Sequence record: DRR378314_2799
Length of the DNA stretch: 64,000 nt
Strand: one strand, 5' to 3'
Below, piece by piece: positions 5,957 through 18,419 of the stretch (the first letter of the stretch is position 1; the number at the start of each line of letters is the position of its first letter). The notes below the pieces were generated by a model. It had not been told where the DNA came from and ran no database searches. It saw nothing but the letters and a program-made list of their open reading frames with translations. A program made the translations under genes and the position numbers.

Positions 5957-6647
5957 GGTGGCAATGCGGGCAACAGAAATTCTGATGGGTTGGGCATTCC
6001 TTCAACAGAGTGTGGAGCATCTGTGGAGCCGAAGCTGGGAGAGGTATCTTTATTTAGTTCGCGCAGGACTTGCGCTGTTGCTTTTGGTCGGTGTGGCGAC
6101 AAACTGGGTTTGCCTGTTGCTGTTTTTGATAGCGTTCGTAACACTGTTTCGATTTCAGGGCCCCTTTAATGGCGGAAGTGATCGGATGAGTTATCTGATC
6201 CTCAGCTGTGTGACACTGGCCAAGTTTTTGCCAGATCCAACCTGGCAGGAATTGGCTTTTGGCTATCTGGGGCTACAGTTGGTCCTGTCTTATTTCATTT
6301 CCGGATGGGTGAAAATTGTGAATGTGGAATGGCGGCAGGGGCGGGCACTTGCTGATGTTTTTGCCTATTCTGCCTATCCGGTCAGCGAGTCGCTACGAGG
6401 CTGGCAACATCAATCAAGGTTACTGCTGGCGATGTCATGGGCGGTGATGGGGTTTGAACTTGCCTTTCCTTTCAGCTTGATGGCTAAGGAGGCTTTAATT
6501 GTCGGATTTTTCATCGCTGGTTTATTTCATCTGGCAAATGCGTTTCTGTTCGGTCTGAACCGGTTTTTCTGGATCTGGATCGCGGCTTATCCCTCTCTAT
6601 TTTGGTTGCAGGAGAGATTATTTGCAGGTCGATTTCTGGGGGATTGA
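5946..6647 (+). CDS. HTTM-domain membrane protein
   Basis: Multiple TM helices, GPFNGGSDRM, SYFISGWVK...W..G, FHLANA..FGLNRFFW typical of HTTM proteins. Confidence 0.8.
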   Translation: MTFEVAMRATEILMGWAFLQQSVEHLWSRSWERYLYLVRAGLALLLLVGVATNWVCLLLFLIAFVTLFRFQGPFNGGSDRMSYLILSCVTLAKFLPDPTWQELAFGYLGLQLVLSYFISGWVKIVNVEWRQGRALADVFAYSAYPVSESLRGWQHQSRLLLAMSWAVMGFELAFPFSLMAKEALIVGFFIAGLFHLANAFLFGLNRFFWIWIAAYPSLFWLQERLFAGRFLGD

Positions 6648-6665
6648 AACCTATAGAGTTGACGC

Positions 6666-6694
6666 AAAAAAAGCCCCCGCAGGGCGGAGGCTTT
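6666..6694 (-). terminator. Rho-independent terminator of the Cache gene
   Basis: Minus strand AAAGCCTCCGC-CCT-GCGGGGGCTTTTTTT hairpin plus U-tract. Confidence 0.75.
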
Positions 6695-6718
6695 CCTGAT
6701 CCTGAAGTTCAGGAGATG

Positions 6719-7171
6719 TTATTTATAGTAACCAACGGCAAAGATCAGATCGCCGTGTTTTTCGGTATAAGCTTCTTTTGGCGCAATCTTTTTAGTTTCC
6801 GGATGAACCCATTGATAGGTCGTCCATGCGCTGCCGTTGGCGATTGTGTTTTCAGTATATTCTTTCACAAATTCTTTACCGGTCGGGTCTTTCAAAGCCA
6901 TCAGATTGCGGCCAACGAGTTTTTCGTTTGCGCCGTGAAAGACGATTTCTTTGGAAGAGGCACTTTGAATAAATACATAAAATTCGCCGTGGTTAAAATC
7001 GCTGCCTTTAGTTGCAAAGTCAGCGAAGGCTTTTTCCTGGCCAGCTTCTTTGTAATGGGCGATGGCAGATTTAACGAGATTTTCTGCAATTGTCTTTTTA
7101 TCTTCCGCGTGGGCTGCAAAAGCCGTGATTACGGTAAATAGGATTAGGGCTGGGGCTAGAATTTTGCGCAT
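6719..7171 (-). CDS. Stand-alone periplasmic single-Cache domain protein
   Basis: Signal peptide ending AHA; FYVF, HGAN.KLVG.N...LKDPTGK.F, Y.W.HP......K..Y. Confidence 0.88.
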   Translation of the reverse strand: MRKILAPALILFTVITAFAAHAEDKKTIAENLVKSAIAHYKEAGQEKAFADFATKGSDFNHGEFYVFIQSASSKEIVFHGANEKLVGRNLMALKDPTGKEFVKEYTENTIANGSAWTTYQWVHPETKKIAPKEAYTEKHGDLIFAVGYYK

Positions 7172-7257: not shown

Positions 7258-7314
7258 TTAAGAACAAATTAATAAGCGGATTATTTCTAATTGGATTTGT
7301 TAACAGATTGTTAA
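7258..7314. promoter_or_regulatory. Two perfect CtrA boxes
   Basis: TTAA-GAACAAA-TTAA (7258-7272) and GTTAA-CAGATTG-TTAA (7299-7314) match TTAA-N7-TTAA(C). Confidence 0.7.
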
Positions 7315-12463: not shown

Positions 12464-12853
12464 TCAGGATTTAATATCCAGCAGGGTTTCCTGCATTTCA
12501 TCCCAAGTGGCGATGGATTTAAGATTGGCTTCATAGGTGCGTTGGGCCATCTGATTATTGACCAGTTCTGTGGCCACATCCACGTTCGGACTTTCAACAT
12601 ATCCATCGTCTGAGGCCAGCGCATGATCAGGAGAGTAGGTCAGGCTGGTTGCAGGGTCGCGCTCTTTAACGACAATTTCGGGGCCCCCGCCTGAGCCTGT
12701 GATTTGAACCGCATCTACGGGCTGATAAGCAGCCTCGGCGCCAGTTGCACCTGGTTTTCCCACGGTTTGGGAATTGACCAGGTTTGATGCCCCAACTTCT
12801 AATTTACGGGTGGAGGCGTTTAAACCGGCAAGGGCAGAGTTAATCACTGACAT
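12464..12853 (-). CDS. Flagellar basal-body rod protein, FlgC-like paralog
   Basis: N-term SALAGL.A...LEV.ASNLVN and C-term Y.PDH.LA..DGYV.SPNVD...E......QRTYEAN. Confidence 0.85.
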   Translation of the reverse strand: MSVINSALAGLNASTRKLEVGASNLVNSQTVGKPGATGAEAAYQPVDAVQITGSGGGPEIVVKERDPATSLTYSPDHALASDDGYVESPNVDVATELVNNQMAQRTYEANLKSIATWDEMQETLLDIKS

Positions 12854-12936
12854 CTTTCGCAACTCCATTTCATAAAATTTTAAATAAAATTTATGCGAAA
12901 ATAAAAATTAATAATTACTCCTTATAGGAGCAATTT

Positions 12937-12952
12937 GTTAATGAACTCTTAA
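12937..12952 (-). promoter_or_regulatory. Perfect CtrA box upstream of the flgC-like gene
   Basis: GTTAA-TGAACTC-TTAA, the reverse complement of TTAA-N7-TTAAC. Confidence 0.75.
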
Positions 12953-12968
12953 TCCCGATGCCGGACGT

Positions 12969-13562
12969 CTAGCCAAAGAGGATCAGACCAACAGTTCCAA
13001 CAAGCAGCAAAGCCATAATCGAATTGAAAATGCGGAGTTTTAAGGGGCTGGATAAAAAGCGCCGTAATTGAGTGCCAGCAATCACCCAGAAAAGGATTGA
13101 AGGTAAGCTGACGATAGCGTGTCCGCCAACCAGAAGCGCAATATCGGCAAGGGTTACCGGGCTGGTTTCCACGAAAGCAGAAGGAATTGTCCCTGCCAGG
13201 ATCCAGGCTTTTGGGTTGATATACTGAAAAAGCGCGGCTTGTAAGAAGGTAAATGGTTTTGAAACTGTAACATTCGAAATATTGGAAGACTGGCTCACCC
13301 GCCAGGCGAGATAGAGAAGGTAGGCACTTCCGGCATATTTCATAATTGGCTGGATTTGCGGAAACAGTGTGAAGATTTCACCAAGGCCAAAGCAAACGAC
13401 CGTCAGCATAAACAGAAAGCCCAGATACACACCCAGTGAGTGAGGAATGGTACGCCTAAACCCAAAATTCACCCCGGAAGAGGCGAGCATGATGGTATTT
13501 GGCCCCGGTGTGGCCGAATTAATAAAAGAATAGGTCAAAAGGGCGGTGAAAGCGACAGACAT
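12969..13562 (-). CDS. LysE/RhtB family exporter (EamB-like)
   Basis: TPGPNT.ML..SG.NFGFRRT.PH, YLLYLAW, FQYINPKAW. Confidence 0.92.
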   Translation of the reverse strand: MSVAFTALLTYSFINSATPGPNTIMLASSGVNFGFRRTIPHSLGVYLGFLFMLTVVCFGLGEIFTLFPQIQPIMKYAGSAYLLYLAWRVSQSSNISNVTVSKPFTFLQAALFQYINPKAWILAGTIPSAFVETSPVTLADIALLVGGHAIVSLPSILFWVIAGTQLRRFLSSPLKLRIFNSIMALLLVGTVGLILFG

Positions 13563-13625: not shown

Positions 13626-13943
13626 TTATGAGGTCTCCGTCACGGTTTTTCGCCAATCATCTAGCAGTCTGAGGAAGTCTTCAGTGTTCAAAGATTGAGT
13701 GTCTGTTTCATCATGGAGGTTAGAAAGGGTGATTATGTTTTGCCGTTTGGTGATTTCATAGAGATTGCCCGTCAGGCTGAATTGAGAGAGGTCTGTCCCG
13801 CCGATCCGATCCCTTAAGAGATCGCAAAAGGCTATATTTTGTTGGATCTCGCTTTCCATATAGGATTTAACGGTGGAGAAGGCGGCTTCAGTCTCTAGTT
13901 GGAAAAAGCTTGTTTTTTCGGATTTTCGGATTTTATAAATCAT
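13626..13943 (-). CDS. Small cytoplasmic protein, UPF0231/YacL-like by eye; candidate immunity protein
   Basis: ATGA overlap with the EndoU gene; segments ESEIQQN, TGNLYEI, EDFLRLLDDWR. Confidence 0.65.
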   Translation of the reverse strand: MIYKIRKSEKTSFFQLETEAAFSTVKSYMESEIQQNIAFCDLLRDRIGGTDLSQFSLTGNLYEITKRQNIITLSNLHDETDTQSLNTEDFLRLLDDWRKTVTETS

Positions 13944-14437
13944 TGTCTATTGGCTTCGTAAATTGGGTAGGCGGTGACAATTCTTCCGTTGGACAGAAGA
14001 TAGCCTTCTATATAAAAACCGGCGCCTGACTGGCCCCGCCATTTGCCTGCCGTGCTTCTAGGACTGTTGTGGAACGCCGTTAAAATAAGCGAGGTGATTT
14101 CCGCTCTGGATAGATTAGCTGGAAACATGCTGGAAAATTTCGATTTCCATATCTTGTGTTCGGGATCGAAAATCTCGACGATTGCGGTATAAATTCCGAA
14201 TTGATTGACACCGGACAGGGGTGTTTGAATGCGGGCTGATTTAGGTGGGTTGACGTTTGGCCGATGATGAAACCCGGTTGGCTTGCCGCGGCTGTTAATC
14301 TCTCCTTCAAAGATGTGGGTAAGGTTTAGCGGCGGCTGAGTATCCGACCAGACTGTGCCATCCCGCGCACCTGCAGAAACTTGAAAGAAGACGGTAAAAA
14401 AGAGGAGTAAGAGCGTGCCTGTAAAGGCTTTTCTCAT
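13940..14437 (-). CDS. Secreted bacterial EndoU-family ribonuclease
   Basis: Sec signal peptide, then HIFEGEIN..GKPTGFHH, K.KFSSMFP, IEGY....IVTAYP (EndoU His-His-Lys pattern). Confidence 0.85.
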   Translation of the reverse strand: MRKAFTGTLLLLFFTVFFQVSAGARDGTVWSDTQPPLNLTHIFEGEINSRGKPTGFHHRPNVNPPKSARIQTPLSGVNQFGIYTAIVEIFDPEHKIWKSKFSSMFPANLSRAEITSLILTAFHNSPRSTAGKWRGQSGAGFYIEGYLLSNGRIVTAYPIYEANRQ

Positions 14438-15231
14438 GTGGGCGGCGCCCCGCTCACAAAACTTTCCACCAGACTTCGGGCAACCAGGTTCCAGCCATCC
14501 ACCAAGACAAAGAAGATCAGCTTGAACGGAAGCGCAATCATGACAGGGGGCAGCATCATCATACCCATGGACATCAGAATAGACGCAACAACCATGTCGA
14601 TGACCAAAAAGGGAATGAACAGAAGAAAGCCAATTTCAAAGGCCCGTTTCAATTCACTGATCATGAACGACGGGATCAGAACTTTGAGAGGAATATCTTC
14701 TGGCGTTTCAACTGTGTCTGTTGCACTTAAATCCATGAAGAGCTGAACGTCTTTCTCTCGCGCATGCTTGAGCATGAAGTTGCGAAAGGGCAGGGCCATC
14801 CGCTCAAAAGCGGTGGTTTCGTCAATTTCTTCATTGATCAGTGGCAACAACCCGTCATCATAAGCCGCCTGAAATGTGGGGGCCATGATAAATCCTGTCA
14901 AAAACAGGGCTAGTGAAATAATCACCACATTTGGCGGGGTTGTCTGAATACCCAGGGCACTTCGCAGCAAAGACAGCACCACAATCAATCGGGTAAACGA
15001 CGTGGTCACAATCAGAATGGCCGGGGCCAGGCTGAGCACAGTCATCAGAACAATGATCTGCACAATCCGCCCGGTAAGCGGGCCAGTTGCATCGCCTAAA
15101 TCCAGACTTAAGGACTGTGCGATGGCATCTGCAGGAATAAAAAAGGCGATAATTCCAAGGGTGACGGTCAAACCAAGCAGAACGGGCAGGGAGACCAATT
15201 TTCGAAGGGATTTTCGCAGGGATCCGATCAT
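14434..15231 (-). CDS. fliP: Flagellar export protein FliP
   Basis: TVLSLAPAIL..TSFTR, PPN, ISELKRAFEIGF, MGMMMLPP..I.LPFKL.FFVLVDGW. Confidence 0.97.
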   Translation of the reverse strand: MIGSLRKSLRKLVSLPVLLGLTVTLGIIAFFIPADAIAQSLSLDLGDATGPLTGRIVQIIVLMTVLSLAPAILIVTTSFTRLIVVLSLLRSALGIQTTPPNVVIISLALFLTGFIMAPTFQAAYDDGLLPLINEEIDETTAFERMALPFRNFMLKHAREKDVQLFMDLSATDTVETPEDIPLKVLIPSFMISELKRAFEIGFLLFIPFLVIDMVVASILMSMGMMMLPPVMIALPFKLIFFVLVDGWNLVARSLVESFVSGAPPT

Positions 15232-15632
15232 TCTTCAGTTTCCCCTCGTATATGTCGCGCCCTTAAACCAGAAAATTTAGGTTCCTGATGTCCATCTTGG
15301 GCCGGTTCGGGGTCCGAACTGCTATTTCCAGCCTCAACTGTTTTGGGCTTGGAGGCAGGTTTGCGCGCTGCTGGGATGTTTGGCTCTACAACCAGATCAC
15401 CATCGGGACCCAACAGAAGAAGATGTTCCTGATCATCCCGTCTGACCAAAACCAGTCGCCTTTTTCCATCCAGCGCAATCATTTGGGTGATTGCCAGGCG
15501 GCGCTTTGTATTGCGATGGTTCTCAGCAGTTGGAATAAATCCAAATTTGCGAACCCCATAGGCAATCAGGGCAATAATCCCAAGGACAAAAACCAGGACA
15601 ACAAGATATTTGGTGTATAATAATAAATCCAT
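15228..15632 (-). CDS. fliO: Flagellar biogenesis protein FliO
   Basis: N-terminal TM, RRL.I.....LD.KRRLVLVRRD..EHLLLLG; overlaps fliP by 4 bp. Confidence 0.88.
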   Translation of the reverse strand: MDLLLYTKYLVVLVFVLGIIALIAYGVRKFGFIPTAENHRNTKRRLAITQMIALDGKRRLVLVRRDDQEHLLLLGPDGDLVVEPNIPAARKPASKPKTVEAGNSSSDPEPAQDGHQEPKFSGLRARHIRGETEE

Positions 15633-15713
15633 GCTGTGTGACGTGCGTCCAGAAGGACGTTTTCTACTCCGTGTCGCTTGGGTAAATTTTAGAAATCATA
15701 AGGCTGTTTTAAA

Positions 15714-15992
15714 TCACACGTCCAGTAAATTGATATGATGGGACAAATCCTCGTATTTCTTTTGAATTTCCTTGGATAGGGTATCTAGTAAAGCGAGAAG
15801 ATCTTCCAGTCCCTGAGTTAGCTCTGCGGTATTGTCACTGTTCATCGCCTGTACATTTTTATATAAGGCGCTCAGTCTGTCCGGAATTTTGGAGATGTCC
15901 ACAACATCACCATTGGCTGTGAGGATTAAACTGTTTTCCAGCTCCTGCTTCATGGATTTGATTTCTTGAAGAAGCTGTTCAGTTGTTATCAT
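15714..15992 (-). CDS. Hypothetical helical/coiled-coil protein
   Basis: ORF from MITTEQLLQEIK overlaps the end of the upstream gene; amphipathic heptad pattern. Confidence 0.6.
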   Translation of the reverse strand: MITTEQLLQEIKSMKQELENSLILTANGDVVDISKIPDRLSALYKNVQAMNSDNTAELTQGLEDLLALLDTLSKEIQKKYEDLSHHINLLDV

Positions 15993-16308
15993 CAGGTGTC
16001 TCGGGTGCTTCAAACTGGGGAGGGAGTTGGTCAGCGTTTTGCGCTTTGTAGAGATAAGACAAAATCTCTGACACGGCGGCAAACGCTTCCAACGGAATGG
16101 GACTATCGACATCCACCTGGGTCAGGATTTGAGCCAAATCGGCATCTTCCCGAACCTTGACGCCATTTTCGAAAGCAATTTTCAAAATCTGTTCAGCAAG
16201 TTCACCTTGACCCGTTGCGGTCACCAGGGGTGCCTTGGCGGAGCCTTTCTCATGGGACAAGGCAACGGCTATGGCCGGCTCGCTGCTTTTTGTCTTGTCA
16301 TCACTCAT
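15979..16308 (-). CDS. Stand-alone FlhB C-terminal-like protein (EscU/YscU/HrcU switch family)
   Basis: AVAL.H......AP.V.A.G.G.LAEQIL.IA.ENGV.VRED..LA..L......IP.E.F.AV.EIL. Confidence 0.9.
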   Translation of the reverse strand: MSDDKTKSSEPAIAVALSHEKGSAKAPLVTATGQGELAEQILKIAFENGVKVREDADLAQILTQVDVDSPIPLEAFAAVSEILSYLYKAQNADQLPPQFEAPETPDDNN

Positions 16309-17485: not shown

Positions 17486-17595
17486 GGAAATTCTGATCAA
17501 CTCTTCTCGATATTCAGTTGAAAAATTTACTTTTTGTTTACCAATTCCAAATAAGGTAGACGGTGCAGATTTGTGGCAGAAATTGTGAGAGACCT

Positions 17596-18000
17596 ATGAG
17601 TTTAAAAAACATACCTTTATTCAGCGCGTTGACAGAGCGTATGAAATGGTTGTCTCAACGCCAGTCTGTTCTGTCCCAGAATATCGCCAACTCTGACACT
17701 CCCGGTTATCAGGCTGCCGATCTGAAAGCTCAATCTTTTAAAGATCTTGTGAAAGGATCGAAAGAAACACAGGTGTATATGGCGAAAACGAGTGACGCAC
17801 ATATTGTGAATGAGCAGAAAACGCCTTTCCGTCCTAAGGAAGATCGCGAACCTTATGAAGTGACGCCGGTTGGAAATGCTGTTGTGCTTGAAGATCAGAT
17901 GATGAAACTTGCAGATACGCAAATGCAGTATCAAATGACGACATCCCTTTATAAAAAGCAGGTCGGTATGCTCAAAACCGCCCTCGGCCGCGGTAGATAG
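17596..18000 (+). CDS. flgB: Flagellar basal-body rod protein FlgB
   Basis: RQ.VLSQNIANSDTPGY.A.DL, GNAV.LE.QM. Confidence 0.96.
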   Translation: MSLKNIPLFSALTERMKWLSQRQSVLSQNIANSDTPGYQAADLKAQSFKDLVKGSKETQVYMAKTSDAHIVNEQKTPFRPKEDREPYEVTPVGNAVVLEDQMMKLADTQMQYQMTTSLYKKQVGMLKTALGRGR

Positions 18001-18011
18001 GAGCAACTGAG

Positions 18012-18419
18012 ATGGATCTCTTAAAATCAATTAAGCTTGCTGCCGCGGGTATGAAAGCCCAGGGCGAACGGATGCGGGTAATTTCGGAAAACCTGGCCAA
18101 CAAGGATAGTGTCGGCCGCACAGCGGATGAAGATCCCTACCGCCGAAAGATTATTACTTTTAAAAATAGCCTGGACAAGGAACTGAACGCTCAAAAAGTA
18201 GAGGTCGGTAAAATTACTGTGGATAGATCGGAATTTCAAAAGCGCTTCGATCCTAGTCATCCGGCTGCGGACGAAGAGGGATATGTGAAGACGCCCAATG
18301 TCAATTCGCTGGTTGAATTGATGGATATGAAAGAAACTCAGCGCTCCTATAAGGCCAATATACAGACGATTGAAGCCTCCAAAAGGATGGTTGCTCAGAC
18401 GCTGGATATTCTGCGATAG
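18012..18419 (+). CDS. flgC: Flagellar basal-body rod protein FlgC
   Basis: RMRVISENLAN, PYRRK, DPSHPAAD.EGYV..PNVN. Confidence 0.97.
   Translation: MDLLKSIKLAAAGMKAQGERMRVISENLANKDSVGRTADEDPYRRKIITFKNSLDKELNAQKVEVGKITVDRSEFQKRFDPSHPAADEEGYVKTPNVNSLVELMDMKETQRSYKANIQTIEASKRMVAQTLDILR

Follow-up and report, generated by a model that had tools for sequence, protein, structure and literature searches.

The 64,000-nucleotide stretch of sequence record DRR378314_2799 that was analysed here (the window, at its whole length) carries, among flagellar genes, a gene for a 165-aa EndoU-domain protein and, overlapping its end, a gene for a 105-aa partner that profile comparison places in the UPF0231/YacL family. 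The two genes form an autonomous, self-contained cassette, which probably encodes a barnase/barstar-like pair, an exported EndoU ribonuclease (RNase) and an intracellular YacL-family inhibitor.

Under this reading, a small endoribonuclease of the EndoU fold would cross the inner membrane by means of a Sec-type signal peptide and end in the periplasm or beyond. The cytoplasmic YacL-family partner would bind enzyme that had folded before export, with its invariant Gly-Asn loop blocking the catalytic cleft, a protection that would parallel that of barstar against barnase and of CdiI proteins against EndoU-type CdiA toxins. A single capture would have placed the cassette between fliP and a flgC-like gene in Sneathiella-like alphaproteobacteria, where it would probably be read through from the flagellar export-gate operon via translational coupling, without itself being a flagellar component. 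The genes concerned are:

15228-15632, minus strand: probable fliO, 134 aa; TIGR03500 E 2.1e-10 and PF04347 21.7 bits, both below cut-off
14434-15231, minus strand: fliP, flagellar export-gate protein, 265 aa; PF00813 E 1.7e-80, TIGR01103 295 bits
13940-14437, minus strand: EndoU gene, 165 aa; PF14436 E 2.5e-22
13626-13943, minus strand: partner gene, 105 aa; UPF0231/YacL by profile comparison

A preliminary description of this DNA, made from its letters alone, had reported four minus-strand genes chained by three 4-bp ATGA overlaps. The open reading frame (ORF) coordinates and the junction sequence agree with it: at each of the three junctions in the fliO-fliP-EndoU-partner run, the stop codon overlaps the next start in an ATGA. 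Of the two flagellar identities that had been given, fliP was confirmed by PF00813 and by TIGR01103, which scored above its cut-off, and fliO remained borderline, PF04347 falling just short of its cut-off of 22 bits.

The EndoU protein

The 165-aa protein was matched by the Pfam model EndoU_bacteria (PF14436) with 80 bits against a cut-off of 25.3, over residues 40-159 of the protein and positions 6-128/129 of the model. Residues 1 to approximately 23 are a putative Sec-type signal peptide and residues from approximately 28 to 165 form the EndoU domain. The signal peptide was assigned to the Sec type by eye, the N-terminus consisting of MRK, a hydrophobic run and VSA/GA, with no twin arginine. 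When sequences were scored by a simple ad hoc hydropathy heuristic, rather than by SignalP, 82 of 85 homologues, and likewise the window protein, had an N-terminal hydrophobic segment ahead of the EndoU domain; the three misses were a truncated protein, a protein with a doubtful start and one that failed the motif pattern. A lipobox was seen in one family member. A trafficking or carrier region was sought in the 165-aa protein and none was found, the protein consisting of the signal peptide and the domain only. The carrier-less arrangement that had been claimed for it, a signal peptide followed by an EndoU domain with a His/His/Lys pattern, was thereby upheld.

The motifs HIFEGEIN, GKPTGFHH, KSKFSSMFP and VTAYP were all found in the protein. 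In an alignment of 47 EndoU sequences, residues W30, P35, H41, F43, G45, G55, H57, N78, G81, K100, S102, P106, G140, G145, T155, A156 and P158 were invariant. These columns include all of the His/His/Lys and Ser/Thr positions given for Tox-EndoU in the available text of Zhang et al. 2012. Across 77 aligned rows (76 locus ORFs and the window), H41, H57, K100, S102 and T155 were kept in 76-77. Judged from residue spacing and a review table, rather than from superposition, H41, H57 and K100 would be the counterparts of H187, H204 and K261 of 5HKQ. The protein would be expected to act as an RNase.

The homologue search, limited to proteins of 90-289 aa, returned 85 EndoU homologues with lengths of 143-250 aa, every one of them with a PF14436 match. 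The closest was 64% identical and came from Sneathiella limimaris; further homologues were found in Terasakiella, Oceanibacterium, Granulosicoccaceae, Thermoanaerobaculia and a Gracilibacteria metagenome-assembled genome. The window domain was also 31-37% identical to the EndoU domains of annotated LXG toxins (Bacillus, Priestia, Listeria plasmids).

An AlphaFold model of the EndoU protein (pLDDT 92.8) was compared with 48,161 PDB representatives, and the first five matches were all EndoU enzymes. The best was MERS Nsp15 (Z 7.9, root-mean-square deviation (rmsd) 3.2, 115 aligned), followed by CdiA-CT of STEC_O31, 5hkq_A (Z 7.6, rmsd 3.6, 111 aligned), human EndoU (Z 7.2), XendoU (Z 6.0) and arterivirus nsp11 (Z 5.7). 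The sixth match was chain 7m5f_C of a Serratia contact-dependent inhibition (CDI) system, with Z 5.5. A profile search of PDB sequences with the EndoU protein gave no match at E <= 0.01.

The partner protein, its linkage to EndoU and its family

A genome scan gave 79 loci encoding an EndoU homologue. A partner profile was seeded with the 105-aa protein of the window and iterated on the ORFs of these loci, ORFs longer than 150 aa being excluded from the seed. At convergence the profile comprised 69 ORFs from 66 of these loci, all directly 3' of EndoU and on the same strand. When the other 13 loci were scanned in six frames, one more partner was found, cut by a contig end, to give 67 of 79. The linked pair was distributed over Pseudomonadota, Acidobacteriota, Cyanobacteriota, Thermodesulfobacteriota, Chloroflexota and Planctomycetota. 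In the other 12 loci (11 from Granulosicoccaceae and 1 from Cytophagaceae), no partner was found nearby in any frame, and the catalytic residues of EndoU were kept. An unlinked partner copy was looked for in one genome among these 12, a complete Granulosicoccus chromosome, and a single partner was found approximately 2 Mb away from the EndoU locus, beside unrelated genes. This genome was one of five reached via the loci, each of which had one EndoU and one partner match.

Co-occurrence was tabulated in 61 relatives of one Sneathiella genome: 37 had both genes, 0 had EndoU only, 0 had the partner only and 24 had neither, and the pair was adjacent in all 37 genomes with both. In a comparison of the window with its closest genome, identity was 92% for fliP, 88% for LysE, 87% for the FlgC-like protein, 64% for EndoU and 53% for the partner, and both ATGA-type overlaps were kept. 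The faster change of the EndoU/partner pair agrees with the co-evolution of an enzyme and its inhibitor; relaxed constraint would look alike. The earlier suggestion that the 105-aa protein is a dedicated partner of EndoU is supported by the adjacency, by the co-occurrence and by the active-site interface predicted for the two proteins (described below).

A 258-aa merged ORF at locus L069 was considered as a natural EndoU-partner fusion and rejected, a frameshift being likelier because the length of the tblastn match is not a multiple of three. On one Thermoanaerobaculaceae contig (L015), two EndoU/partner pairs lie approximately 5 kb apart, at 110-1037 and 5974-6805. At the partner-less Granulosicoccaceae loci (L013, L064-L066 and others), a conserved ORF of approximately 613 aa with no Pfam match lies 3' of EndoU on the same strand.

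A word-based homologue search with the 105-aa protein found nothing, and phmmer gave 15 matches at E <= 0.001 among 1.8 billion representatives, the best being 53% identical and 109 aa long. The protein matched the profile built from ORFs 3' of EndoU with an E of 4.9e-22. When the 42 sequences of the partner alignment were scanned singly against Pfam (E <= 10), 35 matched PF06062 (UPF0231), with a best E of 1.5e-9, and none of the other families turned up in more than two sequences. Among ten scanned in detail, the PF06062 cut-off of 25 bits was passed by P0086 (53% identical; 32.0), L073 (33.5) and L031 (30.3); L007 (24.3), L078 (23.2), L001 (17.6) and L021 (15.8) scored below it, and L009 and L077 had no match. 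Alignment of the 42-sequence profile with E. coli K-12 YacL, taken from the annotated record, by hhalign gave a probability of 96.65% with an E of 4.6e-10 over 102 columns, essentially the full length. Searched against a large protein collection, the partner profile retrieved 341 proteins at E <= 1e-5, and among the 120 of these listed most carried PF06062, 'YacL family protein' or 'uncharacterized protein YacL (UPF0231 family)' names (NCBI/JGI). Because of the PF06062 matches, the hhalign result and the profile search, the likeness to YacL that had been noted by eye is correct, and on these profile comparisons the 105-aa protein is a divergent member of UPF0231/YacL.

Within the 42-sequence alignment, G59 and N60 were invariant and Q34 was near-invariant, the latter in an E-[ST]-[DE]-[IL]-Q motif; the window protein has E-S-E-I-Q at 30-34 and the G59-N60 loop. 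No N-terminal hydrophobic segment was found in the partner. In the hhalign alignment, Q34 is matched with K and N60 with H in E. coli YacL, which also carries an acidic insertion. No EndoU_bacteria match was found in E. coli or in a second genome that carries a strong canonical YacL. A PF06062 survey of 201 Gammaproteobacteria gave one match, too sparse for a co-occurrence table. The preliminary description had expected the linkage to suggest a function for the UPF0231 family. This stands for the EndoU-linked branch, to which alone an inhibitor function would be assigned, and does not extend to the whole family, since E. coli has YacL in a genome without an EndoU_bacteria match and the contact residues differ.

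Four of the 15 phmmer matches, long and repetitive proteins (P0087, P0089, P0090 and P0091; 333-2529 aa), were considered as partner homologues and rejected, Pfam showing no relation in P0087, P0089 and P0090. In these proteins partner residues 26-89 were matched in up to 30 stretches, and the likeness is probably compositional.

Predicted complex, known systems and rival explanations

The complex was predicted from mature EndoU (residues 26-165) and the partner, without use of the alignments described above. The predicted complex had an ipSAE of 0.91 in 3 of 3 runs, and the best of 3 controls reached 0.02; contact agreement between the runs was 100% and partner pLDDT was at least 89. In calibration, the mark for this score was reached by 51 of 78 solved complexes and by 2 of 108 mismatched pairs. 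Predicted contacts on the partner side were residues 57-61 (G59, N60) and 34-39 (Q34), and on the EndoU side residues 52-55, H57, 99-103 (K100, S102), E144-146, T155 and Y157, which make up the invariant catalytic surface. The model thus predicts that the partner is an active-site inhibitor (immunity protein) of EndoU. No sequence-similar solved structure was found in the PDB for either chain, so that recall of a homologous complex is unlikely, though the like-folded 5HKQ has been solved. Profile searches of PDB sequences gave no meaningful match for the partner and none for E. coli YacL, and the CdiI proteins of 5HKQ and 4Q7O were not listed among the partner profile matches at E <= 10.

The partner model (pLDDT 93.6, pTM 0.86) consists of two strands, two helices, four strands and a C-terminal helix. 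Ranks two and three among the 48,161 chains were held, each at a Z of 6.9 (under 8), by 4q7o_B, the NMB0503 immunity protein of N. meningitidis MC58 (rmsd 3.2, 91 aligned), and 5hkq_I, CdiI of E. coli STEC_O31 (rmsd 3.1, 89 aligned). Both chains of 5HKQ therefore stand in the top three fold matches of the respective window proteins. In the available text of PMC9086364, 5HKQ is described as the complex between a CDI toxin of the EndoU clade and its immunity protein, CdiI-MC58 as a structural homologue of CdiI-STECO31, and the binding of the active site as general among immunity proteins of BECR toxins.

The cassette can accordingly be compared with the EndoU-type contact-dependent toxin/immunity pairs represented by 5HKQ (CdiA-CT/CdiI STEC_O31) and 4Q7O (CdiI MC58). 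It shares with them the enzyme fold, the His-His-Lys set, an immunity gene directly downstream and an active-site interface, which for the cassette is predicted. Unlike the CDI systems, it has no CdiA carrier, CdiB, receptor-binding or entry domain, only the signal peptide; it has no orphan toxin/immunity arrays, being single-copy and inherited within lineages; and its partner belongs to UPF0231.

The cassette resembles barnase/barstar of Bacillus amyloliquefaciens in pairing a small RNase, here putatively secreted, with an intracellular inhibitor that would protect the producer (PMC8625414, in the text available), and barnase-type and EndoU RNases are grouped in the BECR fold class in the available part of PMC3482391. 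Unlike barnase, the enzyme belongs to the EndoU clade, with a duplicated BECR core, and unlike barstar the partner is a UPF0231 protein. The hosts of the cassette are Gram-negative, so that Sec export would reach the periplasm first, unlike that of Bacillus barnase.

With the polymorphic toxins (MafB, LXG, Rhs and CdiA) the cassette shares a homologous EndoU domain and an immunity-like gene downstream; unlike them, it has neither a trafficking domain nor tip polymorphism. No secretion machinery or orphan toxin-immunity cassettes were found near the pair, where 10 representative neighbours were scanned against Pfam, the neighbours being flagellar in the window and unrelated housekeeping genes elsewhere. 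Because carrier domain, secretion partner and cassette arrays are all missing, this is not a polymorphic toxin system. The immunity families given for Tox-EndoU in the available text of Zhang et al. 2012 are Imm-SUKH, Imm-SuFu and Imm28; that text, supplements apart, contains no mention of YacL, UPF0231 or PF06062, and neither does a 2026 preprint on BECR classification. PADLOC anti-phage defence models matched 0 families when both window proteins and two partner homologues were submitted. E. coli YacL is like the partner in family (by profile), in length and in the order of its predicted secondary structure. Unlike the partner gene, yacL lies between acnB and speD in the annotated E. coli record, without EndoU.

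A secreted RNase with an intracellular inhibitor is an already known principle. As far as the literature was searched, three points are new: a free-standing EndoU family with a signal peptide only, in at least six phyla; a cognate EndoU partner from UPF0231/YacL, a family without assigned function or solved structure; and the match of the predicted partner fold and binding mode to the immunity proteins of EndoU CDI systems. No publication naming both EndoU and YacL was found in the literature searched, and none of the YacL/UPF0231 papers among the matches listed was about EndoU by title. With this pairing, a function that can be tested directly is proposed for one branch of a y-gene family, and the question arises what role E. 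coli YacL has at RNA polymerase.

Several observations weigh against an exported RNase with a YacL-family inhibitor. Sec cannot export a folded enzyme-inhibitor complex, and the inhibitor would therefore act only on molecules that escape export. The 12 loci without a nearby partner have an intact-looking EndoU, and the window partner by itself lies under every Pfam threshold, with no match at E <= 1. Foldseek against the PDB gave nothing at E <= 0.001 for either model, its only match for EndoU being Nsp15 (probability 0.90, E 0.08). The first-ranked fold match of the partner is a type VII secretion system (T7SS) toxin-associated chaperone (9dcr_A, Z 7.6). Z values below 8, here 6.9-7.9, may reflect a common arrangement and are usual for models without a clear match, and the fold likeness is therefore supporting evidence rather than proof of homology. 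Finally, E. coli YacL, the only studied member of the family, is found in a genome without an EndoU_bacteria match, and it binds RNA polymerase and NusG: in the available text of PMC8196013, it crosslinks to the beta and beta' subunits and to NusG and co-purifies with them.

The binding of E. coli YacL to the transcription complex suggests another explanation, in which the partner, by its family relation to YacL, would be a YacL-like factor of that complex (RNA polymerase, NusG), and its adjacency to EndoU would reflect regulation rather than inhibition. This is very unlikely given the 37/0/0/24 co-occurrence, the one-to-one copies even where the genes are unlinked, the centring of the predicted interface on the catalytic residues, and the H and K found in E. 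coli YacL at the positions of N60 and Q34. The T7SS chaperone match (with 9dct_A at Z 6.7 beside 9dcr_A) and the tight coupling of the two genes would fit a partner that acts as an export chaperone or stabiliser, keeping the RNase secretion-competent instead of inhibiting it. Substrates of Sec, however, can do without a dedicated chaperone for the folded state, the contacts in the predicted complex lie over the catalytic cleft of the folded enzyme, and the Z values are within 1 of those of the two EndoU immunity proteins; of the explanations considered, this one was given the least credence.

The preliminary description had also drawn a functional tie between the pair and the flagellum from its placement after fliO and fliP. 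Among the 79 loci, fliP lies directly 5' of EndoU in 10 and 2 kb 5' in an eleventh (Oceanibacterium); in the other 68 there is no fliP within 6 kb of the cassette. Among the 61 Sneathiella relatives, fliP was found in 52. Of the 37 that have EndoU, 36 have it abutting fliP, and the single exception has fliP and EndoU on different contigs; 15 fliP-bearing relatives were without the pair. The linkage that had been described thus holds for Sneathiella-like genomes and not for the loci overall. In a tree of 77 EndoU rows, which left out two loci without an intact ORF, sequences grouped by taxon. The 11 fliP-linked rows stood together (support 89/85, not starred), nested in a starred alphaproteobacterial clade of 14. 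Such clade-specific synteny and grouping are as expected from a single capture 3' of fliP followed by vertical descent.

Elsewhere the neighbours of the cassette were unrelated (peptidase S9, SH3, LON-domain, NHL and ABC ATPase genes) in the Pfam scan of 10 representative neighbours. Besides the pair itself, no neighbour conserved across phyla was found, antisense shadow ORFs in GC-rich loci being disregarded. The autonomy of the cassette follows from these two results, the neighbours outside the fliP clade being unrelated and none being kept across phyla. The cassette also occurs in Cyanobacteriota (Pseudanabaena-type), Acidobacteriota and Granulosicoccaceae. The flagellar placement is real and a stable marker of the clade, and there is no evidence of a flagellar function.

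A motility-coupled role, in which the RNase and its partner would serve flagellar biogenesis or motility (RNA clearing at the export gate, or dispersal) and would for that reason stand behind fliO and fliP, is accordingly judged unlikely. The pair does follow fliP directly in nearly all EndoU-bearing relatives, ATGA coupling is kept in the window and its closest relative with flagellar genes on either side, and the fliP-linked sequences group in the tree. One ancestral insertion would give the same grouping, however, and the 68 loci without nearby fliP, with their unrelated neighbours, the Pseudanabaena-type cyanobacteria that carry the cassette and the 15 fliP-bearing relatives that lack it all argue against a functional tie, as does a signal peptide of the Sec type rather than a flagellar export signal.

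The reading as an exported RNase with its inhibitor can be extended into a broader and rather doubtful proposal. UPF0231/YacL would be an old, phylum-spanning family that inhibits exported EndoU RNases and shares the fold of the CdiI proteins of EndoU-type CDI toxins; enterobacterial YacL, the binder of RNA polymerase and NusG, would be an orphaned descendant whose RNase was lost and whose contact residues changed; and in Sneathiellaceae the RNase would have come under flagellar export-gate (class II) transcription. If the last part were true, the cleavage of envelope or extracellular RNA would switch on with motility.

Flagellar cluster and transcription signals

The other features of the region are:

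15979-16308, minus strand: FlhB C-terminal-domain-like gene; PF01312 E 1.3e-17, TIGR00789
15714-16112, minus strand: 132-aa ORF; weak Pfam matches, below cut-off
15698-15712, strand not given: CtrA-like string ATAA-N7-TTAA; judged a chance match
12969-13562, minus strand: LysE-family exporter (Pfam/NCBIfam), separating the partner gene from the FlgC-like gene
12938-12952: perfect TTAA-N7-TTAA; lies between lysE and the second FlgC-like gene and overlaps the terminator-like hairpin region
12913-12935, after lysE: terminator-like hairpin (consensus scan)
12464-12868, minus strand: second FlgC-like rod gene, 134 aa; TIGR01395 70 bits, cut-off 102

With flagellar genes on both sides, the EndoU/partner pair lies inside a flagellar cluster. 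The position of fliO 5' of fliP was kept in 11 loci, and the FlhB-C-like gene and the 132-aa ORF were both kept 5' of fliO in relatives. The longest ORFs at 15714-16112 and 15979-16308 overlap by 134 bases in different frames, and the true start of the 132-aa ORF is therefore probably at a later ATG. A lysE gene separates the cassette from the FlgC-like gene only in the window and in four close loci (L001, L002, L004 and L092), and it seems to have entered the flagellar cluster at a later stage. In relatives without lysE, a FlgC-like gene is found directly 3' of the EndoU partner. Besides the second FlgC-like gene, flgB/flgC-like genes are also present in the window at 17563-18419 (plus strand). 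In the Sneathiella glossodoripedis draft, fliP (L004 5154-5935 / G002:C11:352887-353668) was matched in two overlapping pieces with an internal TGA, either a frameshift or a sequencing error.

The four overlapping genes would be transcribed together. A near-consensus CtrA box had been reported ahead of fliO. The string ATAA-N7-TTAA is present at 15698-15712, one mismatch from TTAA-N7-TTAA. The window has 27 boxes with one mismatch, where shuffles give an expectation of 27.05; in none of 11 related loci was a box of this type found within 140 bp 5' of fliO. On these counts the string was judged to be a chance match. Perfect TTAA-N7-TTAA boxes were found at 12938-12952, 7258-7272 and 7300-7314, three against 1.21 expected, and at least three occurred in 8 of 100 shuffles. 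Consensus scans, which are weak evidence here, found no terminator-like site between the partner gene and lysE. At locus L005 the upstream ORF has its stop directly against the fliO ATG, so that the transcription unit probably begins further upstream. A AAAGAATAGTTTTCAAA-type string, absent from the window, L001 and L004, was seen approximately 60-90 bp 5' of fliO, after the stop of the upstream ORF, in L003, L007, L008, L012, L014 and L022, and may be a shared regulatory site.

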